DNA from: an uncultured Candidatus Saccharibacteria bacterium
Lineage (GTDB): Bacteria > Patescibacteriota > Minisyncoccia > Phycocordibacterales > UBA9973
Reading direction: 5' to 3'
NCBI GenBank assembly: GCA_964439045.1
Contig: CAYTMO010000002.1
Location: forward strand, 1 to 55,635
Length of the DNA stretch: 55,635 nucleotides
The translations under genes were made by a program, and so were the position numbers. Below the pieces are notes generated by a model that saw only the letters and a program-made list of their open reading frames with translations, was not told the DNA's origin and searched no databases. The first letter of the stretch is position 1; each line of letters starts with the position of its first letter. This document shows, one piece after another, positions 25,959-53,332 of this stretch.

Positions 25959-26040
25959 TGTGGCAAGAATGTAGCAAGAACAGTTCTTGCTACATTCTTG
26001 CCACAAGAGAATCTTTATTACTGCCTTTTGCTAGTCCACA
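25959..26040. repeat. palindromic repeat, copy B (47-nt perfect palindrome plus TTGCTAGTCC tail)
   Basis: 23-bp arms at 25959-25981/25983-26005. TTGCTAGTCC recurs as in copy A. Confidence 0.7.
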
Positions 26041-26132
26041 GAGCACTGTCTGGACACACCCTATAAAAAAATATATACTTACTAGTAAGCAAAGTGTGGT
26101 GTAAAAAGTCGAAGAATGTTGTTTAAAACTTG

Positions 26133-26245
26133 AGCAGAGAAAGTAATTGTGGACCCGACCAGAGTTGAACTGGCACTGCACATTTCTAAGACGGGCGTGC
26201 TACCTTTAACACTACGGGCCCTAAAGCTTATATTACTTTCTCTGC
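26133..26245. repeat. perfect 14-bp inverted repeat enclosing the tRNA-like gene
   Basis: GCAGAGAAAGTAAT at 26133-26146 and ATTACTTTCTCTGC at 26232-26245. Confidence 0.8.
26150..26221 (-). tRNA. atypical tRNA, anticodon UAG (Leu codon) with short variable loop
   Basis: Hand fold: GGGCCCG/CGGGTCC acceptor, GTGT/GCAC D stem, anticodon stem CCCGT/ATGTG (one C-U mismatch), loop CTTAGAA, 4-nt variable loop, T arm GCCAG-TTCAACT-CTGGT, A73. Confidence 0.65.
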
Positions 26246-26536
26246 TGGAATTTTAAACTATTTTATTTTCAAAAAAACTACCTCATAAGGATACCTACCT
26301 TTAAAAGTGCTTACTTTTAAAGGGTTATATAACATATTATACCTGCCATATAGAGTGTGAGCAAGTAATGCATCATAAAGTGTTATAATGGGGGTAATGT
26401 CAAACTTAAAAAATAAAAATGTAGTAAAAATAACGCTCTTTGGGACATTCAACGGGACAAATAAAGGGCATCTTATTTTTTTAAACAAGCAAAAAAGATA
26501 TCCACAAATTTTCTTTAGTGAGTTTTAAGAAATTAA

Positions 26537-26965: not shown

Positions 26966-27845
26966 ACCTTTTAAAAATCAAAACCCCTAACACTAACCCT
27001 AATATAATAGCATACCAAATAAAGTTTCCTTTAACTTCTGTATTTATTACAGCGCTAGTAAGAGATAATTCTTCTTTGGGTTCTATGTTTGGCTTCTCTT
27101 CTGTTTCTTCTACCCGCTCATCTTCATAGACTACTTCTTGTTCTATTTCTTTTTCTTTAATTACTTCTACTTCTTTTGTAACTTCTTCTTTTTTTGTAAT
27201 CTCTGCGCCTTGCACCACACCAGAACTTTGTTCTGCATTTTCTGTATTTAAAGCAAACATTATTTGTTCTTGTTTTGGTTCTAATGGCGCAGGAAAGCCT
27301 GAGCCGCCGCCAGAAGAAGAGCTACTAGGAGGATTGTTAGTAGGTGTTTCTTCTGTTGTTTCAGTCTCCTCTTCTTCTGCAACTGGCTCCTCTTCTGTTC
27401 CTTCCTCAACCACTTTCGGGTAAACCTCATCCACTTCCCCATCGGCATTTTGGTCTACTTCAAGCTTGGCTAGTGATAATTTGAAATCTGAATCAATTTT
27501 CATCGTAGCAAGAGTTGTACTTAGACTGGATATATTTTCAAAGGTTGTAGTCTCTACTACATCGTTACCAAGTTGTTTCTCTATGTCTAAAGAAAATGCT
27601 CCACCTGAAATACCTTGAAGCTTCAATGTGTAAGACACTCCAGTAGGAGTAGAAATGAATTGAGTATCACCAAATGTCTTATAGACTACATTTGGTATTT
27701 CTTGTTTGATTTCTCCTGCTATAGGGTCAAGTCCTGTGTATCTGCCTTCAGAGTCTGTGATGCCGAGTGCAAGTGGTGAGTGGAGAATGTAGTGGAGACG
27801 AGCATCTTCTATTTCTATTTTTAAATTAGATTCTGTATCAGTCAC
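26952..27845 (-). CDS. C-terminal part of a surface protein (acidic/Pro-Ser linker and C-terminal TM anchor); frame open up to 27968
   Basis: Listed GTG start has no SD. The same frame as the upstream gene continues without a stop back to the TAA at 27969-27971. Confidence 0.5.
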   Translation of the reverse strand: MTDTESNLKIEIEDARLHYILHSPLALGITDSEGRYTGLDPIAGEIKQEIPNVVYKTFGDTQFISTPTGVSYTLKLQGISGGAFSLDIEKQLGNDVVETTTFENISSLSTTLATMKIDSDFKLSLAKLEVDQNADGEVDEVYPKVVEEGTEEEPVAEEEETETTEETPTNNPPSSSSSGGGSGFPAPLEPKQEQIMFALNTENAEQSSGVVQGAEITKKEEVTKEVEVIKEKEIEQEVVYEDERVEETEEKPNIEPKEELSLTSAVINTEVKGNFIWYAIILGLVLGVLIFKRFVKF

Positions 27846-31345: not shown

Positions 31346-32664
31346 AAAAAATTCTTATTTCGTTTTTGTTTATGGAAATTAATAGCAAATCTATGAGACT
31401 CGGCGTTCAATGCTATTATTTCTTTTTTATACTTTTGAGCTATTGTAGTGTCTCCTAAAATTTCTCTGGCTTTATGTTTATCATCTTTTACCACTCCTAC
31501 AACTGGGATATTTAGTTTAAAATCTTGTAAAACTTTCTTAGCTACATTTACCTGCATAATGTTTCCATCTACTACTATCAAACTAGGTGTATGCCACTCT
31601 GTATGCTTAAATCTTCTTTCCAATACTTCTCGGAGCGCTCCTGTATCATTTGCATTTTGCTGACTTCTAATAATGAACTTTTTATATTCATTTTTTTCTA
31701 ATTCACCGTTTTTCGATACCACCATCACCCCCACCATATTCTGCCCAGACATATGAGCAATATCGTAAGCTTCTATTCTAAGAGTTGGATTAGCAAGACT
31801 TTTTCGAGCAGTGGTGCTGTGTAACAGAATATCCCGAGAAAAAGTCTTGCTGACAGAATCATCTTTAATCAAAGCCACATCATTAATATGCCCTAAAGCG
31901 AAAATCTGTCTTTTTATCTCCCCTGCTTTCTCAAATTCTTTTTGCTTTGCATACAATTTCATTTCTTTTTGCAAACTTTTTAAAATTGATTGCTTTTTGC
32001 CTTCAAAAAAAAGTTTTATGTTTTTGATATTTTTTAGCAAAATTTCTTTTTGTTCTGGAGCAAGTTTTATTTGTCTATAAAATTCATATGTTCCTTTGAC
32101 TTTAGACTTTTCATCCAAAAATGGAAATATCTTTCGTACTAATTCCAAAGCAGTTTTGAGTTGAGAACCATTGGGGAATGGGCCGTATATATTTGTGAAA
32201 GAAACAGGGAAATTTTTCGTCGCGTCGGAGCCCTTTAGGGTAAAATGCGAAAAATTTCCCTGTTTCTGTAACTCTTTGCCTCTCACTATCAAAACTTTCG
32301 GCAACTCTTCTTTGGTAATACAAACATAATTAAAGCTCTTATCGTCTTTTTCTTTTGTATTAAAGTATGGCTGGTATTTTTTAATTAAGCTCGCTTCAAG
32401 TATCAAAGCTTCTAGAACACTATCAGTTTCCTGCCATTTTATACTATTTGCTCTAAAAACCATTTCTAAAATTAGTGGCCCACGAGTTTCGATCAAATCT
32501 TTACTAAAATAACTTCGTACTCTGTCTTTCAGGCTTGTTGCTTTACCGACATATAACAACCCCCCACCTTTATAGCCCCCTTCGCCAAGCTTCGTTGGGC
32601 CAAGGAAAAAGTAAACTCCAGGTTTTTCTGGCAAATTAAATTTTTTAAAATCATTTAATTTCAT
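31339..32664 (-). CDS. uvrC: excinuclease ABC subunit C, short form without C-terminal (HhH)2
   Basis: GIY-YIG (PGVYFF...LLYVGKATSLKDRVRSYF), UVR motif (FEKAGEIKRQI), endonuclease domain ending HRFAINFHKQKR. 441 aa. Confidence 0.9.
   Translation of the reverse strand: MKLNDFKKFNLPEKPGVYFFLGPTKLGEGGYKGGGLLYVGKATSLKDRVRSYFSKDLIETRGPLILEMVFRANSIKWQETDSVLEALILEASLIKKYQPYFNTKEKDDKSFNYVCITKEELPKVLIVRGKELQKQGNFSHFTLKGSDATKNFPVSFTNIYGPFPNGSQLKTALELVRKIFPFLDEKSKVKGTYEFYRQIKLAPEQKEILLKNIKNIKLFFEGKKQSILKSLQKEMKLYAKQKEFEKAGEIKRQIFALGHINDVALIKDDSVSKTFSRDILLHSTTARKSLANPTLRIEAYDIAHMSGQNMVGVMVVSKNGELEKNEYKKFIIRSQQNANDTGALREVLERRFKHTEWHTPSLIVVDGNIMQVNVAKKVLQDFKLNIPVVGVVKDDKHKAREILGDTTIAQKYKKEIIALNAESHRFAINFHKQKRNKNFLK
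32200..32267. repeat. inverted-repeat-bounded in-frame element inside uvrC
   Basis: Perfect 20-bp arms AGAAACAGGGAAATTTTTCG/CGAAAAATTTCCCTGTTTCT. The core contains GTCGGAGCCC and GGGTAAAA. Confidence 0.8.
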
Positions 32665-32667
32665 AAA

Positions 32668-35394
32668 TTACTTTTTCTTTAGAACTTTCTTTAAATACTT
32701 GCCAGTGTAGCTGTTTGTATTATTTGCCACTTCTTCTGGTGTGCCTTTAGCAATCAACTTTCCACCATTTACTCCTCCCTCAGGACCAATATCTATAATA
32801 TAGTCAGAACACTTTACTATGTCTAAGTTGTGCTCAATCAATACAACTGTATTACCTTTGCTTACAAGCTGATTTAAAACTTCAAGGAGTTTTGCCACAT
32901 CATCATAATGCAATCCTACTGTAGGCTCGTCTAATAAGTAAATAGTCTTTTCTAAATGTGGACGATATAATTCACTAGAAATCTTTACTCTTTGTGCCTC
33001 ACCACCTGAGAGAGTGGTGGCAGATTGACCAAGCTCCAAGTATCCAAGACCCACATCCATAAGAGTCTTTAATCTATCTGAAATAGCCGGAATATCTTTG
33101 AAAAAAGTTAACCCTTCTTCTACAGTCATTTTCAAAACTTCATAAATATTTTTCTTTTTGTATTTTACTGTAAGAGTTTCCTTATCAAATCTTTTACCTC
33201 GACAAACATCACAAGTCACATACACAGTCGGCAAGAAATGCATTTCTACTGCTATCTCTCCATTGCCTTCGCAAGCTTCACATCTACCACCTTTTACATT
33301 AAAAGAAAATCTATTGGCCTTCCATCCACGAAAACGAGCTTCTTCTGTCTCAGCAAACAAATCACGAATATGAGTAAATGTCCCAGTATATGTGGCAATG
33401 TTACTTCTTGGAGTTCTGCCTATTGGAGACTGATCTATAAGAATTGCACGAGTTAAATACTCTGTACCAGTGAATGAAGCACAGTTAAATACTTGCGCTG
33501 TCCGGTATTTCCTCTCAAGTCTGCCTTGCAGATTTTTATATAAGATCTCATACATAAAAGAACTTTTACCTGAGCCAGAAACTCCGGTGATAGAAGTCAT
33601 CACGCCGAGCGGTACTTCTACATTCATATTCTCTATATTAAAAACTTTTCCTCCAACAATACGAAGCACACCTTTCGCTTCGCGTCTTTTCTCTGGAATT
33701 TCTATTCTTGCTTCTTCGCGAAGATACGCAAGTGTGCGAGAATTATTTGTATTCTTTTTTGCAGTAAGCAATTCATCAAGCCAACCTTGAGCAACGACGT
33801 CTCCTCCGTGCACTCCAGCCTTCGGACCAATGTCTACAATGTAATCCGATGCATAAATAGTATCTTCGTCGTGTTCTACTACTAAAATAGTATTTCCCAA
33901 ATCTCGCAAGTTAAGTAATGTTTTTATCAGTCTATCGTTGTCTCTCTGATGCAATCCTATCGTTGGTTCATCCAATACATAAAGCGCACCTACAAGCCTA
34001 GAACCTAGTTGTGAGGCAAGGCGTATGCGTTGCGCTTCTCCACCTGAGAGGGTGTTTGCTTTACGAGAAAGTTGCAGATAGTCGAGTCCCACATCAAGCA
34101 TAAAAAGAAGCCTTGCTTCTATCTCACGAACCACAGGTAATGAAATTTCTTTTTCTTGATCTGTAAGTTTTAAATTTTTGAAAAATTGATAGGCCTCTGC
34201 AATAGACAAAGATGCAAGGTCTAAAATATTTATTTTATCTTTTACTTCTTTTTTATTCTTAACACTTTTATTTTCTTTAGTATTTTTATTTTCTAAAGTA
34301 TTGCCAGTCAAAAACACATTCAATGCTTCTTTTCTAAGTCTTGCGCCATTGCAAGAATCACAAGGCTCATCCCCTCCGAAATACTTTGAACCCAAGCCGT
34401 TACAATCTGGGCAGGCACCATACGGAGAGTTAAAAGAGAAAAGTCTTGGCTCTACTTCTGGAAAAGAAAATCCATCATTCTTACAAGCAAACTTTGCAGA
34501 CATTACGAATTCTTCTGTACCTATTTTTATAGTTACCAATTGATCAGATTCTAAAAGAGACCTTTCAAGTGCTTCTGCAAGGCGCGCCCTGCTCGCATCT
34601 TTATTATCGACAAATTCGTGTACTAAAAAATGGTCTACTAAAATATCTATATTATGTGCTTTATTTTTAGAAAGGGTTATTTGTTCGCGCAGCTTTTTCA
34701 TCACACCGTCTAGGCGGATTTCTGAGAATCCTTTGCCGAGCAAGTCATATAGAAGCTGATAGTATTCTCCTTTGCGTCCACGAACAATTGGAGAAAAAAT
34801 ACTGATTTCTGTCTCATCCCATTCTACGCCCATTACTTTTCGTTTTTTATTTGCAGGAACTTGGGAAGCAAAATCCTGATCCGTGTCGGAGCCCGTCGGA
34901 TTTTGACGGGTAAAACGGGCAGAATTTTGCTTTCCAAGTTCTTTGATTTTCTCAAGTATAAAATTTAAAATTTCTTCATTAGAAAGTTTTTTAATTTCTT
35001 CGCCACATTGTGGACAATGCGGATGCCCAATACGAGCGTACATCACACGCATATAGTCATATATTTCAGTAATAGTAGCTACGGTAGAGCGAGGGTTGTT
35101 GGATCTTGATTTTTGATCTATAGAAATAGCTGGAGAGAGTCCCGTGATTTCATCTACATCGGGCTTGGGCATTTGATTTAGAAATTGTCTTGCATAAGAA
35201 GAAAGACTCTCTACATACCTCCTCTGCCCTTCGGCAAAAATAGTATCGAAAGCAAGAGAGCTTTTACCAGAGCCTGAGACGCCAGTAATAACCACCATTT
35301 TGTTTCGTGGCATTTCTACATTTATATTCTTCAAATTGTGCGTCCGTGCACCCCTCACTATGATGCTATCATGCTTGTTTAACTTTTCTTTCAT
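32668..35394 (-). CDS. uvrA: excinuclease ABC subunit A
   Basis: [34 protein letters not shown], two ABC modules and zinc modules. 908 aa. Confidence 0.97.
34857..34941. repeat. inverted-repeat-bounded in-frame element inside uvrA
   Basis: 18-bp arms GAACTTGGGAAGCAAAAT/ATTTTGCTTTCCAAGTTC (one G-T). The core has GTCGGAGCCC, a CCCGTC/GACGGG hairpin and GGGTAAAA. Confidence 0.8.
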
Positions 35395-37636: not shown

Positions 37637-39868
37637 TTACTTTTCCATCCTCTCTCTCAACACCCCTATCTCATCCCTTAGTATGGCTGCAGTTTCAAAG
37701 TCGAGTTCTTTGACGGCTTTGTTCATTTCCTTTTCTTTAATTTTAATTATCTTTTCATAGACTAGGCTAGTCCTCTCTTCGTCGGACATATGGAGCTTCA
37801 CTTCGGTTACATTGCCATCTTTTGTTTTCTTTTTAGTTACTGTGCTTTTGTCTAATGCGAGCTCTTTTGCATAAGCTTTTTTAAATACTTCAAGATCAAT
37901 AGAAAGCTCTGCGTTCACTGCTTTGCCGTGCTCGCTCTCCATAGCTTCGGTAATGTCTTTTATATTTTTCAAAATTGTCTTTGGGGTGATGTTATGTTTT
38001 TTGTTATAAGCTAGCTGAGTATTCCTCCTCCTGATAGTCTCTTTCAAGGCGCGCTCCATCGAGCCAGTAATCTTGTCTGCATAGAGTATCACTCGCCCTT
38101 CGCTATTTCTCGCTGCACGGCCTATAGTCTGAATGAGGGCAGTCTCACTCCTTAGGAATCCTTCTTTATCAGCGTCGAGTATCCCAATAAGTGCTACTTC
38201 TGGCAAATCTAAACCTTCACGAAGAAGGTTGACTCCTACTAACACATCAAATTTCCCTTTTCTGAATTCGGTTAGAATTTTTATTCTGTCTATTGTCTTT
38301 ACATCACTGTGCAAATACTCTGACTTAATTTTCTTATCTTTCAAGTATACAGACAAATCTTCTGCCATCTTTTTCGTAAGTGTAGTCGCCAAAACTCTAA
38401 AACCTCTCTTGATTGTATTTTCTGTTTCTTTTATAAAATCTTGAATCTGGCCGGGGTAATTTGAGCTCTTCGAAATGTGTTCGGAAGAATCTCCGCTACG
38501 AACAGAACTATCTTGCCCTTCCAGGGCAGAATGCGAATCCTGGAGAACATCTTTCGAAGAGCTAGCAGCCACAGGTCGAACAATGGTCTCTGGATCAACT
38601 AGCCCTGTCGGACGGATGATTTGCTCTACTATCTGCTCACTTTCTTTTCTCTCTACATCGCTTGGGGTTGCACTAGTGTATACTACTTGCCCGATTCTCT
38701 TTTCAAATTCAGGATATTTCAAAGGCCTATTATCCTTCGCAGAAGGAAGACGAAAACCGTATTCCACAAGTGTGTTTTTGCGAGAAGCATCGCCTGCATA
38801 CATACCATTTAATTGAGGCAAAGTTACGTGTGACTCATCAATAATAGTTAAGAAATCAGGTTCTTTGTTTTTTGTATGAGGGAAATATGAAAGCAAAGTT
38901 TCTGGTGCTTCGCCCTCCTTCTTACCAGAGAGGTGTCTGGAATAATTTTCTATACCAGAGCAATACCCCACTTCTTTAATCATTGCCAAATCATAATTAG
39001 TTCTTCTTTTGATTCTTTCTGCTTCTAAGAGCTTTCCTTCTTTTTCAAAATATTTGAGCTGAGCTGCCAATTCCTTTTTTATATTTGCTAAAGCAATTTT
39101 AGTTTTTGAATCTTCGGTGATGAAATGCTTAGTCGGAAAAACATAAATATCTTTTTCTTCTGCTAAGATTTTTGAAGACACAGGATCCACTTTTAAAATC
39201 TCTGAAATCTTCCCTCCTGACATCTCAATGACGTACATAAAAGTATCAGACACAGGCACGAATTCTACTTTAGAACCAATAGAGCGAAACTGCCCGGAAG
39301 AAAGGTCTGCATTAGTCCTTTCAAAATGAATTTTGATTAAACTTTTCATTAATGTAGTCCTATCCATTTTCATTCCTACTGAGAGCTTAAGATTTTCTTT
39401 CTCATATTCTTCTGGTGAACCTAAACCATAAATACAAGAAACAGAAGCGACAATGATGACATCACGACGAGTAAGGAGGGCCTGAGTGGAAGCGTGGCGA
39501 AGGCGGTCTATTTCTTTGTTTATCTGCGCATCCTTTTCTATATAAGTATCAGAGACGGGCATATATGCTTCTGGTTGATAGTAATCATAATAAGACACGA
39601 AGTAATGCACCGCAGCATCAGGGAAAAATTCTTTAAACTCTTGTGCAAGTTGTGCAGCGAGAGTTTTGTTATGCGCTATTACAAGAGTAGGCTTGTTCCA
39701 CTTGGCTATGACATTTGCCATTGTGAAAGTCTTACCTGTACCTGTAGCACCGAGCAATGTCTGCTTTCGCATACCTTTTTCTAAGCCTTTCATAAGCTCC
39801 GAAATAGCCTTCGGTTGGTCCCCGGCTGGCTCGAATTTACTCTTCAATTTAAAAATACCTTCAGACAT
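37637..39868 (-). CDS. uvrB: excinuclease ABC subunit B with Ser-rich insertion
   Basis: GATGTGKTF, DESHVT, helicase C motifs and C-terminal UVR (FETAAILRDEI). 743 aa. Confidence 0.97.
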   Translation of the reverse strand: MSEGIFKLKSKFEPAGDQPKAISELMKGLEKGMRKQTLLGATGTGKTFTMANVIAKWNKPTLVIAHNKTLAAQLAQEFKEFFPDAAVHYFVSYYDYYQPEAYMPVSDTYIEKDAQINKEIDRLRHASTQALLTRRDVIIVASVSCIYGLGSPEEYEKENLKLSVGMKMDRTTLMKSLIKIHFERTNADLSSGQFRSIGSKVEFVPVSDTFMYVIEMSGGKISEILKVDPVSSKILAEEKDIYVFPTKHFITEDSKTKIALANIKKELAAQLKYFEKEGKLLEAERIKRRTNYDLAMIKEVGYCSGIENYSRHLSGKKEGEAPETLLSYFPHTKNKEPDFLTIIDESHVTLPQLNGMYAGDASRKNTLVEYGFRLPSAKDNRPLKYPEFEKRIGQVVYTSATPSDVERKESEQIVEQIIRPTGLVDPETIVRPVAASSSKDVLQDSHSALEGQDSSVRSGDSSEHISKSSNYPGQIQDFIKETENTIKRGFRVLATTLTKKMAEDLSVYLKDKKIKSEYLHSDVKTIDRIKILTEFRKGKFDVLVGVNLLREGLDLPEVALIGILDADKEGFLRSETALIQTIGRAARNSEGRVILYADKITGSMERALKETIRRRNTQLAYNKKHNITPKTILKNIKDITEAMESEHGKAVNAELSIDLEVFKKAYAKELALDKSTVTKKKTKDGNVTEVKLHMSDEERTSLVYEKIIKIKEKEMNKAVKELDFETAAILRDEIGVLRERMEK
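38464..38563. repeat. inverted-repeat-bounded in-frame element inside uvrB
   Basis: 12-bp perfect arms AGCTCTTCGAAA/TTTCGAAGAGCT, central palindrome TGCCCT-tcc-AGGGCA at 38514-38528, and TGCGAATCCTGGAG motif. Confidence 0.75.
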
Positions 39869-47508: not shown

Positions 47509-49968
47509 CTACTTCACCTCTCCAAAGTTATCCCCCGAGCCGTAGTGCACTATAAGTGGTATATCTGTTTTGTATTTTAAATATGACCTTGTAAGCACAC
47601 CCTCCATTGCTTCAGATATTACTTTTTCTGCTTTTGTGAGGACGGTTTCTTCTATCTCATAAACCAACTCATCGTGAATCTGGAGCATAAGATGTGTTTT
47701 GTCTAAAAGTCCAGCTTTCGCCAAGTCTTCTTCTGCATAGCGAATAGCGAGCTTGATGATGTCGGCTGTGGCTGTGCCTTGGACTGGTGCATTAATAGCA
47801 GTGCGCTCTGCCATACTTTTCAAGAATGGAAGCCTGGAGTTTATATTTGGGAAATATCTCCTTCTGCCGAAAAGTGTCTCCGTATAAGTATGCTTCTTGG
47901 CATATTCTTTAACACTTTCTAAATAATCCCTCACACCAGAGAATTGATTAAAGTAATTATCATAAAACTTCTGCGCTTCTTCGCGAGTACCACCCAAGTT
48001 CTTACGAAGCGCAGAGACTCCCATACCATAAATAATTCCGAAGTTTATAACTTTTGCTTTTCTTCGCATTTCACTATCTACCTTGTCTATCGGTACTCCA
48101 AAAACAAAAGACGCCACCCCTGCGTGAATATCCTTTTTATCTTTAAATATTTCTGTCATCTTTTTATCTCCAGAGAGCATAGCCACCACTCGGAGCTCTA
48201 TCTGAGAATAATCAAAAGCTACAATCTTGTGTCCTTTTTCTGCAATGAAACCATTTCGAATTCTTTTGCCTAGCTCTGTCTTGATAGGCAAGTTTTGCAA
48301 ATTAGGATCTTGAGAATTAAATCTGCCTGTCGTAGTCGCATTTTGCACAAATTTAGAATGGAGTCTGCCATCCTCGCCCACCATAGCTGGAATCACATCT
48401 ACATAAGTAGAAAGCAATTTCTGTAATTCTCTGTATGCCATTATTTCTGTGATTATTGGATTGTCTTCTTCGAGCTCTTCTAATACTGATATCTTGGTAG
48501 AGAGGTTGCCACTGGCGTTTTTCTTTTTGGTGTTTTTGATACCTATTTTTACAAACAAAACTTCACTTAATTGTTTTGGAGAATTAATATTGAATTCGCT
48601 ACCTGCCATTTTATAAATCTTTTTTGTAAGTTTGTCTAACTCTGTATGATATTCTTTAGATAAGTTTTTAAAATACTTTTGGTCTATCAGGATTCCGTGC
48701 TTTTCCATTTTGTCTATTATTGGTATTATTGGCTTTTCTATTTCTTCATAAACTTTTTCCAAATTGTCACCCTTTAATCTTCCAAATATGTATTCTTTAG
48801 CTGTTTTGAAATCTTTTGTTTTAGCGTAATTTAAAATATCTTCTAACTTTGGATTGGAAATATCAGAATTCAAAAGCCACAAAGCTATAGAAGTCTCGTG
48901 AAGCTCTTTTGGGTCTACGTCTTCAGTAATTTCTTGCGGATTCTGGAGTAAAGAATTCTGTGTGTCTGGTTGAGCCTGCTCTTTTTTAGAATGTTGTAGA
49001 GGTGTCCCTAAGACCTGCGGATTCTTTACTCCAGAATCCGAATTACCATTCCCAAAAAAGGTTTTAAGCCTTGAGAACAAACTACGAAATTCAAACTCTG
49101 TAAAAACTTTTTCTATCTTACTCAAGTCTGCATTCTCCCAAAATGTTTTTTCTGGAATTTTAAAATCAATTGGTGCATCTTTGCGAATTGTTGCTAATGT
49201 TTTAGAAAACAATGCTTCTTCTTCATTGTCTTTTATAAGTTCAAAAATTCTAGGGGTGATGCCAATATCTTTAAAGACTTTATTATCTTTTTCTTTTTTG
49301 AAAGTTTTATAAAGATTCTCAATAGTTTGAAATTTATTTATAAGAGTAGTCGCAGTCTTCTCTCCTATACCTTTGATACCAATTATGTTGTCAGATGTAT
49401 CCCCTCGGAGTCCTTTGTAATCTGGGAGAAATTCGGGCTTAAAGCCAAACCTTTCTACAACCTTTTCTTCATCATAAAGAATCGTATCTGTTATTCCTTT
49501 TTTCAAGGTATAAACTTGCACCTTTTTATCATCAATAAGTTGCATTGTATCCATATCACCAGATGCAATTATGATATTAATGCTTTTATCTTTTTTAAAT
49601 TGTTCTACTATCGTACCCAACACATCGTCTGCTTCAAATCCTGGTGCATCATAAATAGGGATATTAAAAGCTTCAAAAATCTTGCGAGAGCTAATAAGTT
49701 GAGAAATAAGTGCATCATCTGCTTTTACTCGACCAGCTTTATAAGCATCGTAAGCAATATGACGAAAAGTCTTTTGCGGTAGATCATAACAAGCCACAAT
49801 ATAATCAGGCTTCAAGTCTGCAATTATTTTCATCAACATATTAGATACACCATAAAGCGCGCCTGTGGGCTCCCCACCCGAAGACAAAAAATCTGGCAAT
49901 GCGTGATACGCACGATGAATAATCGCGTGAGCATCAAGAAGTACTAAAAGCTTAGGTTTGTCTTTCAT
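47509..49968 (-). CDS. polA: DNA polymerase I
   Basis: 5' nuclease N-terminus, DYSQIELRVVA and QIHDELVYE family-A motifs. 819 aa. Confidence 0.97.
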   Translation of the reverse strand: MKDKPKLLVLLDAHAIIHRAYHALPDFLSSGGEPTGALYGVSNMLMKIIADLKPDYIVACYDLPQKTFRHIAYDAYKAGRVKADDALISQLISSRKIFEAFNIPIYDAPGFEADDVLGTIVEQFKKDKSINIIIASGDMDTMQLIDDKKVQVYTLKKGITDTILYDEEKVVERFGFKPEFLPDYKGLRGDTSDNIIGIKGIGEKTATTLINKFQTIENLYKTFKKEKDNKVFKDIGITPRIFELIKDNEEEALFSKTLATIRKDAPIDFKIPEKTFWENADLSKIEKVFTEFEFRSLFSRLKTFFGNGNSDSGVKNPQVLGTPLQHSKKEQAQPDTQNSLLQNPQEITEDVDPKELHETSIALWLLNSDISNPKLEDILNYAKTKDFKTAKEYIFGRLKGDNLEKVYEEIEKPIIPIIDKMEKHGILIDQKYFKNLSKEYHTELDKLTKKIYKMAGSEFNINSPKQLSEVLFVKIGIKNTKKKNASGNLSTKISVLEELEEDNPIITEIMAYRELQKLLSTYVDVIPAMVGEDGRLHSKFVQNATTTGRFNSQDPNLQNLPIKTELGKRIRNGFIAEKGHKIVAFDYSQIELRVVAMLSGDKKMTEIFKDKKDIHAGVASFVFGVPIDKVDSEMRRKAKVINFGIIYGMGVSALRKNLGGTREEAQKFYDNYFNQFSGVRDYLESVKEYAKKHTYTETLFGRRRYFPNINSRLPFLKSMAERTAINAPVQGTATADIIKLAIRYAEEDLAKAGLLDKTHLMLQIHDELVYEIEETVLTKAEKVISEAMEGVLTRSYLKYKTDIPLIVHYGSGDNFGEVK
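48937..49040. repeat. inverted-repeat-bounded in-frame element inside polA
   Basis: Perfect 20-bp arms CGGATTCTGGAGTAAAGAAT/ATTCTTTACTCCAGAATCCG. 10-nt direct repeat TGCGGATTCT at 48935 and 49016, exactly 81 nt apart. Confidence 0.8.
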
Positions 49969-52928: not shown

Positions 52929-52975
52929 TACATTCAGTTCGCTCCGTACAATTTTTTTGCTAAAAAATTAAAAAA

Positions 52976-53117
52976 GCATTAATCTCTAAACAATCCTTTT
53001 AGGGCTTTAGCCCAGAAAGTAACAAATTTTTGAAGGATAGACCCAGTGATTTAAAAAATACCAGAACGTCCTACGCAAACTTATATAACCGAAGGCTGAT
53101 TGCTTAGAGATTAATGC
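52976..53117. repeat. 142-bp intergenic element closed by a 20-bp inverted repeat (structured RNA or MITE-like)
   Basis: GCATTAATCTCTAAACAATC at 52976-52995 pairs 19/20 with GATTGCTTAGAGATTAATGC at 53098-53117. Inner hairpin at 52996-53019. Confidence 0.6.
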
Positions 53118-53332
53118 CTTTGATTCTTTGCAGAATCTTTGGAACACATCTCTTTTACTTCTATATAATTGTCAAAACCCTTACAAAGCTATTATACCTG
53201 CCACACCACACAATGAAATGCTATAATGTGGATAGCTATGTTCATAACCTGTTATGAAAGAAATATAGCATAGTTCACTTGTAATGTCAAGTTTTTATTT
53301 GTGAATATAAATTTTGTGTGTTGTAAAAAATA

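Follow-up and report, generated by a model that had tools for sequence, protein, structure and literature searches.

How does a polA gene come to carry a long palindrome with perfect arms inside its coding sequence, and what is this palindrome? The question is raised by contig CAYTMO010000002.1 of assembly GCA_964439045.1, of which a stretch of 55,635 nucleotides was analysed (the whole stretch is called the window below). A sequence-only reading of the window had reported, within polA, a palindrome of two perfect 20-nt arms around a 64-nt spacer together with 10-nt direct repeats 81 nt apart, and had counted it as the fourth such element; the palindrome, the repeats, their positions and the number of four were all confirmed, the other elements residing in uvrA, uvrB and uvrC. 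We interpret the element as a copy of a dispersed palindromic repeat that is nucleated by a conserved core, enclosed by fold-back arms, and selfish or neutral in a permissive linker of PolA, and we assign this interpretation as a whole a probability of roughly two in three.

The element is 104 nt long and its arms are 100% complementary (coordinates of all features are collected in Table 1). Folded as RNA it reaches -42.7 kcal/mol compared to -20.2 +/- 3.2 for shuffled sequences (z = -6.98), the region folds at -24.2 with DNA parameters, and the stem continues outwards in a short extension that pairs across a 5-nt bulge. It lies in frame in a disordered inter-domain linker, where the peptide quoted by the sequence-only reading was recovered after FEFRSLFSRLKTFF, and is translated as an unstructured insert of approximately 35 residues. 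An AlphaFold2 model based on 43 orthologues gives residues 307-348 a predicted local distance difference test score of about 25 and no secondary structure, with well-modelled domains on both sides. The earlier view of an inserted, hairpin-forming element in a non-conserved linker between domains is supported. As to the enzyme itself, Pfam finds no 3'-5' exonuclease domain in the PolA of the window, and its 5'-nuclease and Pfam polymerase domains are separated by the disordered linker plus some 80 modelled residues without a Pfam match.

At the level of DNA, the palindrome in polA represents a copy of family A, a dispersed repeat that is found in Paceibacteria-type Patescibacteria and is non-coding by design. 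The closest PolA proteins are from Patescibacteria (Paceibacteria, "Nomurabacteria" and Parcubacteria), and the nhmmer profile of family A matches the window at 48964-49021 on the minus strand with E = 1e-5, the copy of the window being diverged. Several source records carry labels such as "Saccharibacteria" or "Burkholderiales"; these taxon labels are probably wrong and the contigs patescibacterial. The family consensus reads GAATTTTCTCRGGTCCTCGG...CCAGACC..TTCGAAAATTC, with the shared core (A)AAGTTTTTCTCAGGTCCTCGG...CCAGACC.TTC.AAAAACTT. This conserved core of about 55-75 nt occurs within many genes as well as between genes, in either orientation and in several reading frames, and nhmmer profiles showed the "FSQVLGSP" and "GLAGVGDPENRGPEK" types to be the same DNA in opposite orientations (family A/C). 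That one core is read in several frames argues for indifference at the protein level. In the window the spacer encodes PQVLGTPLQHSKKEQAQPDTQ, with the counterpart SRVLGSPAQDSLKERAQPDQL in orthologues. The sequence-only reading had expected no conserved sequence in this linker, which is true of the peptide; in the DNA, by contrast, the nucleotide core is conserved across genomes and host genes. A scan of the genome collection with a strict family-A pattern (biased towards one subfamily; at least 120 loci) yielded at least 129 copies which, among the matches listed, are distributed over PolA (22), UvrB (8), UvrC (4), UvrA (2) and others (93). Thirty-one of these 93 lie in open reading frames (ORFs) of less than 180 aa, so that their position is probably intergenic, and about a quarter of all listed copies are in short ORFs or intergenic DNA. 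Copies inside protein-coding genes are in frame and devoid of stops, with intact reading frames in hundreds of copies from many projects. Carriage by phages was considered and dropped, the two viral matches being chance hits to unrelated, GC-richer DNA.

When copies were folded and compared within genomes, they had only a core of about 55-65 nt in common, each with its own perfectly complementary arms of 10-25 bp. Every copy of the family is enclosed by such locus-specific, near-perfect complementary arms. From each of 143 distinct copies we took 22 nt situated 12 nt or more outside the conserved anchors: the outer flanks were complementary within the same copy in 69% of cases versus 0.6% with swapped partners, and the left flanks of different copies were alike in 0.9% of pairs. 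Because arms are locus-specific in every family member, the 20-nt arm of polA has no second match in the window at up to three mismatches (0 expected in shuffles). A scan for the arm, as once suggested, hence detects no other copy in the window, while related copies of the core do occur elsewhere. Core identity between loci has a median of 0.82 within a genome (many pairs at 0.9-1.0) versus 0.74 between genomes, which points to recent copying or conversion inside genomes.

The origin of the arms can be followed in uvrB, which contains two insertion sites. At site 1, just upstream of the conserved VPDFLTIIDES, the 3' arm consists of the host VPDFL codons and the 5' arm of their reverse complement, and synonymous differences between species (CCT GAT TTT TTG vs CCA GAT TTC TTA) recur as mirror images in the 5' arm. 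At site 2 the empty form VRP-VSEKxxYK-GQIQDF is present in 16 loci, and filled alleles have 23-48 aa there, with folding energies of -28 to -60 kcal/mol. The empty sites fold at just 0 to -3.3 kcal/mol, for which reason we rejected palindromes that pre-existed at the target. In a pair of loci with 91% identical flanks, the empty allele (L081) reads GTTTCTGCGAGTGGGAAGACTTTT-CCT and the filled one (L122) reads GTTTCGGCGAGTGGGCAGACTTTT, core, AAAAGACTGACCACTCGCCGAAAC and finally AATAC-CCT. When reverse-complemented, the 24-mer gained by the filled allele agrees with the upstream host flank at 22 of 24 positions, and the VSASG part of this flank also occurs in another empty allele (L106). This comparison yields the layout X-core-X', the host flank X being repeated in inverted form as X'. 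The arms of these uvrB alleles are thus inverted duplications of adjacent host DNA, and those of the polA element probably are as well. Even constrained or host-derived positions of one arm are repeated, inverted, in the other, as is typical of template-switch products. Elements may also be stacked, e.g. in locus L137, where a family-A element is nested in a family-B remnant.

The polA site itself is subject to turnover. We aligned 120 PolA orthologues across the linker and analysed the DNA of 84 polA loci. Linker length is variable, yet a few peptide motifs reappear in separate lineages, such as EFSRVLGSPAQDSLKERAQPDQLENSL (in the window diverged to PQVLGTPLQHSKKEQAQPDTQNSL), EFSQVLGSPGPHTPARPFENSL, ESFGAGLAGVGDPENRGPEKTLL, ALRRSHSILEGQDLSGRSEYSSEH, TSPPAPLLxKERVAERPGEV and others. 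Both the length polymorphism at the linker and the related copies elsewhere, on which the sequence-only reading had staked its insertion hypothesis, are therefore present. The 67 distinct linkers form two separate groups: 54 fold at -25 kcal/mol or below (median 129 nt) and 13 above -17 (median 75 nt), with none in between. Those bearing a hairpin carry family A or another family and the 13 others are empty, i.e. occupancy is 81%. In the three nearest relatives (L001, L003 and L004) the flanks of the polA site are 89-95% identical in DNA to the window. L001 has the same element at equal length with two uncorrected arm mismatches, and L003 and L004 have unrelated hairpins, their linkers being 50-56% identical to that of the window. 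Unrelated linkers between such similar flanks imply that the polA site was refilled within approximately 10% nucleotide divergence. Both core orientations are found at this site, and the close pair L003/L004 resembles replacement or nesting more than a clean inversion. A GC-rich hairpin family was also observed in the polA linkers of L015, L025, L042, L073 and L074, translated as TSPPAPLLxKERG.. or, reversed, as PLSLxRRGxGGEV; it shares sites in polA, uvrB and uvrC and is frequent between genes, too.

The X-core-X' layout, the lack of conserved termini and the lack of a target-site duplication across the family (169 related copies) together argue for fold-back or template-switch synthesis and not for cut-and-paste transposition. 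In the mechanism that we propose, a nascent strand would leave its template for another copy of the core, with microhomology in A/T runs as the probable route, and copy it. The new core would then fold back on itself and prime synthesis along the nascent strand, giving rise to X', and the strand would afterwards rejoin its original template. Later intrastrand template switches would keep the arms matched, extend them, and might flip or replace the core. The resulting element seems to be selfish or neutral DNA that is tolerated in a loop, and not a functional part of PolA. Several observations weigh against this interpretation. The mechanism is deduced from end products only, and a mobilising enzyme might still be involved. 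The 81% occupancy of polA linkers and the strong host preference described below exceed what simple neutral insertion would predict. The mismatched arms of L001 indicate that arm maintenance is not constant, and the divergence of the window copy makes its family assignment weaker than that of most copies. Moreover, some arms (e.g. in locus L114 at uvrB site 2) are mostly neither recognisable host flank nor core, so that flank duplication fails to account for every arm.

The four elements of the window belong to three core families and are its strongest hairpins within genes. Besides these, the window has terminator-like and RNA-gene hairpins that are not located in genes and, in coding sequence, a weaker palindrome (27281-27390). 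The copies in uvrA and uvrC have the third core family (TTTTACCC..GGGCTCCGACRCG) in common, which is also present in uvrC of L081.

Table 1. Coordinates of polA, its palindromic element and the sister elements in the window.
Feature	Position	Strand	Remarks
polA, 819 aa	47509..49968	-	ORF; Pfam 5'-3' exonuclease at residues 8-273, DNA_pol_A at residues 431-817
polA palindromic element, 104 nt	48937..49040	-	encodes PolA residues 310-344
5' arm (sense) CGGATTCTGGAGTAAAGAAT	49021..49040	-	outer 16 nt locus-specific; inner GAAT is the core terminus
Spacer, diverged family-A core, 64 nt	48957..49020	-	from nhmmer and peptide alignment
3' arm (sense) ATTCTTTACTCCAGAATCCG	48937..48956	-	exact reverse complement of the 5' arm
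Direct-repeat copy TGCGGATTCT	48935..48944	+	end of the 3' arm plus 2 nt past the arm
Direct-repeat copy TGCGGATTCT	49016..49025	+	across the arm/core junction
Outer stem extension AATTACT (sense)	48925..48931	-	pairs with 49041-49047
Outer stem partner GGTAATT (sense)	49041..49047	-	pairs with 48925-48931 across a 5-nt bulge
uvrB sister element, family B	38464..38563	-	E = 9e-19; encodes SSSKDVLQDSHSALEGQDSSVRSGDSSEHISKSS; element-free orthologues have 8 aa there
uvrA sister element, family H	34857..34941	-	strongest hairpin of the window; encodes a 29-residue peptide
uvrC sister element, short family H	32195..32272	-	encodes GNFSHFTLKGSDATKNFP

Hosts other than polA and the uvr genes were identified by assigning the 57 distinct large ORFs among the 93 other listed copies with Pfam. 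Among these matches we found UvrD-family helicases (13 ORFs), TGT (7), MnmA (5), class-V aminotransferases, KsgA and RecJ (4 each), and LigA, class-I aminoacyl-tRNA synthetases and CCA/poly(A) polymerases (3 each), as well as single cases including PheT and a glycerate-kinase-like protein. Within the same loci, other hairpin families are represented in UvrA, UvrB, UvrC, UvrD, LigA, TGT, the CCA enzyme and LepA. In the relatives (L001-L204), hairpins of several unrelated core families are concentrated in UvrA/B/C/D, PolA, LigA, RecJ, TGT, MnmA, KsgA and the CCA enzyme, where they often share one loop; PBP, the T2SS ATPase, TyrRS and RuvB, neighbours that are as large or evolve faster, have none. 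Counts of inherited copies are inflated when there is one genome per species, and we therefore used syntenic neighbouring genes in polA-centred loci as a control (18 families). Inverted repeats were present in orthologues of UvrC (5/14), UvrA (8/18), UvrB (6/24) and PolA (39/81), but not in the T2SS ATPase (0/58), RuvB (0/47), RuvC (0/35), YebC (0/24), PBP (0/26), TyrRS (0/30) or a 214-aa protein (0/63), and rarely in PEMT (1/69) and TsaE (2/28). Altogether, 58 of 137 nucleotide-excision-repair genes contrast with 5 of 464 neighbouring genes (Fisher p = 2e-36, uncorrected for phylogeny), and the four top-ranked families of the 18 are exactly the four excision-repair genes. Two explanations were rejected. 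Relaxed selection on the host proteins does not apply since the affected proteins are not less conserved than unaffected ones (UvrA 82%, UvrB 76% and PolA 73% vs 68% and 45% in the hairpin-free PBP and TyrRS). An artefact of polA-centred sampling is also unsuitable, since the genome scan widened the range of hosts and the neighbour control kept the preference. The host preference for excision-repair genes is real and constitutes our main unexplained result.

This preference speaks for a rival explanation in which the hairpin is a selected cis-acting structure, either a DNA cruciform or an mRNA structure, for the common control of excision-repair and some tRNA-enzyme genes. It would act as a roadblock sensitive to supercoiling or damage, as a binding site for repair proteins, or as an RNase III or translation-pause site. 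Apart from the gene counts, and from the fact that all four in-gene hairpins of the window are in uvrA, uvrB, uvrC and polA, this idea gains from unrelated core families sharing host genes and even sites, from arms that are kept near-perfect even where one of them is constrained coding sequence, and from the high occupancy of polA linkers. Selection on mRNA structure should be visible in the arm mismatches of the sense strand, yet an unbiased count gave 101 A.C and 51 G.U; without an excess of G.U, such selection finds no support. Neither a U-run, as expected for a terminator, follows the polA hairpin nor does the element match a known structured RNA in Rfam at the gathering threshold or E < 0.1. 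Likewise, about a quarter of the listed copies are in short ORFs or intergenic DNA and others are in unrelated hosts such as the glycerate-kinase-like protein and LepA, many uvrB sites and 13 of 67 polA linkers lack an element, the arms of L001 have decayed, and the gene counts on which the idea leans are uncorrected for shared ancestry. Taken together, we regard a selected control hairpin as unlikely. With similar reserve we put forward a tentative link between the hairpin elements and excision repair that might take one of two forms. Cruciforms or hairpins inside uvrA, uvrB, uvrC, uvrD, polA, ligA and recJ could provide LexA-independent control, serving as "damage mimics" or supercoiling-sensitive roadblocks that couple gene expression to DNA damage. 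On the other hand, the elements could be self-propagating mobile DNA, multiplying by fold-back template switching with no transposase and accumulating in the genes for those very proteins (flap nuclease, UvrD, RecJ, ligase) that normally suppress template switching.

A classical MITE (miniature inverted-repeat transposable element), moved by a transposase acting on terminal inverted repeats and leaving the 10-nt direct repeat as target-site duplication, is a still less probable explanation. Family A resembles MITEs and the REP/REPIN class in being small, non-autonomous, hairpin-forming and dispersed, its members are palindromic, multi-copy and non-coding, copies within a genome resemble one another, and the window copy does have a direct repeat, which the sequence-only reading had taken for a possible scar of target-site duplication. 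However, neither of the features that define MITEs, conserved terminal inverted repeats and target-site duplications, was found in family A: conservation is limited to the internal part, and the arms differ from locus to locus. Direct repeats of at least 9 nt accompany 12 of 169 related copies only and are nearly all self-complementary A/T words, and the filled uvrB allele has an inverted, not a direct, duplication of its flank. No long autonomous version with the same termini was found in 2.1 Mb of the relatives' loci, where no search was aimed at transposase genes, and an autonomous partner as in MITEs or REPINs was likewise not found in the loci sampled. REP sequences are extragenic palindromes of 20-40 bp and most copies of family A are intragenic; inspection of the family-A consensus by eye, with no systematic search, revealed no GTAG/CGTC tag, and the RAYT gene was not searched for.

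In the window, moreover, the direct repeats do not bracket the palindrome. One copy is located inside, at the junction of arm and core, and the other consists of the last 8 nt of the far arm and 2 nt beyond. On the sense strand the arm starts with CGGATTCT, and these 8 nt are complementary also to the start of the core (AGAATCCG). Arm and core meet in AGAATCCGCA, and the far arm closes with AGAATCCG, just before a CA. It is this additional complementarity of the arm to the left end of the core, combined with that between the arms, that generates the 10-mer. The left end of the core is unusual in the window (GAATCCGCAGGTC vs GAATTTTCTCAGGTC in the consensus), and in L001 the direct repeat is imperfect. 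We infer that the repeat is a by-product of nested palindrome formation at the polA locus that is peculiar to the window copy, and it looks as if palindrome formation had taken place there a second time, in nested fashion. The repeats are probably not a transposition scar. By slippage between them, 81 nt would be deleted in frame, which indeed equals 27 codons. The predicted allele shorter by 81 bp does not exist among the closest known relatives.

This last result also concerns a contingency locus, in which palindrome and direct repeats would generate frequent and reversible in-frame length variants of PolA. Palindromes are known to be unstable, the repeats are exactly 27 codons apart, and linker length does differ among relatives, but the direct repeat is confined to the window copy, the nearest relative combines an imperfect repeat with an element of equal length, no shorter allele is found among known proteins, and the peptide has neither structure nor conservation on which a variant could act, all of which makes such a locus highly improbable. 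Although metagenome assembly and multiple displacement amplification can produce inverted chimeras, a chance palindrome or artefact has a negligible probability given that no chance matches are expected at the z-score reported above, that L001 and L002, which are two independent assemblies, contain the same element at ~90% identity, and that reading frames are intact in hundreds of copies from many projects.

For the dispersed repeat that we favour, the Rickettsia palindromic elements (RPE) appear to be the closest known analogue. The account of RPE by Ogata et al. (2000), to the extent conveyed in PMC10969869, describes palindromic repeats of ~100-150 bp in many copies that are inserted in frame in conserved coding genes. 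Family A is comparable in size and copy number (median hairpin span 97 nt; at least 5-7 copies per genome among the matches listed). Both are short multi-copy palindromes translated in frame as surface or loop peptides, in bacteria with reduced genomes, without a transposase of their own. This likeness is one of description; the hosts being Patescibacteria, i.e. another phylum, membership in RPE by descent is very unlikely. The anatomy differs as well: here the internal core alone is conserved, the arms are locus-specific and derived from host flank in inverted form, copies are read in several frames and occur in both orientations, and hosts are strongly biased to excision-repair and tRNA-enzyme genes, whereas RPE are reported in unrelated metabolic genes.

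Hairpins in mitochondrial genomes provide a second parallel. Template switching has been proposed as the mechanism behind palindromes within the coding sequence of Nematomorpha mitochondrial genes (PMC6649704), and hairpin elements (RHE) are described in sponge mitochondrial DNA (PMC2800124). They share with family A long near-perfect inverted repeats in translated genes, arms that may encode conserved protein, dynamic gain and loss, proposals of template switching or arm conversion, and a suspected parasitic character. They concern organelle genomes, however, and the Nematomorpha repeats have no shared core family, in contrast to the conserved mobile core that nucleates each palindrome here and the specific functional set of hosts. 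The individual steps of our mechanism have precedents, too. In yeast, template switching homogenises the arms of inverted repeats and inverts spacers (PMC8604942) and can expand arms (PMC13100816); quasipalindrome template-switch mutagenesis has been followed with lacZ reporters in E. coli (PMC7202029). Arm homogenisation and arm expansion without the need for a transposase would be common to these systems and ours, and spacer inversion may be. The known cases alter a few nucleotides in existing repeats, while family A requires the import of a 55-75-nt core from another locus plus 10-25 nt of inverted flank.

Some further features of the window and its relatives deserve mention. The coding palindrome at 27281-27390 belongs to a hypothetical protein, where it falls into a low-complexity stretch (EEEETETTEE...SSSSSGGG) and GAAGAAGAG faces CTCTTCTTC; it may be another product of arm mirroring. 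An intergenic inverted repeat upstream of ruvB (52972-53121; span 150 nt, 24-nt arms 92% complementary and 102 nt apart) is close to the minimum of cumulative GC skew (~51-52 kb), with dnaN ~10 kb further on in relatives, and may be near the replication origin. A match to LOOT RNA (Rfam RF03000) lies at 1479-1599 (82.9 bits vs a gathering score of 46.4). The tRNA-Leu(TAG) gene at 26149-26221 is flanked by a 36-nt imperfect inverted repeat (26112-26267), just upstream of which there is a perfect 23-bp palindrome (25959-26005). In relatives, class-I aminoacyl-tRNA synthetases with whole inserted domains were observed (L169:1213-4821, L178:4575-8000, L199:4206-7187), the insert being a histidine-phosphatase domain in an enzyme of the Ile/Val type and, in LeuRS, a NUDIX domain.

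To our knowledge, selfish palindromes inserted in frame were formerly regarded as a speciality of Rickettsia. A comparable and possibly larger phenomenon exists in the candidate phyla radiation, with a different anatomy in which a conserved core is joined to a mirror copy of the host flank, and this anatomy points to transposase-free spread by template switching during replication. We found no description of such elements in Patescibacteria in the literature covered, which did not extend to subscription journals, and the X-core-X' architecture and the preference for repair genes are the parts most likely to be new. The elements account for many lineage-specific "insertions" and odd low-complexity peptides in proteins of Patescibacteria, which cautions against taking such peptides as functional motifs, and they offer natural markers of recent DNA turnover. 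Their concentration across the complete excision-repair pathway was unexpected and, if functional, would represent a new mode of DNA-repair regulation in bacteria.

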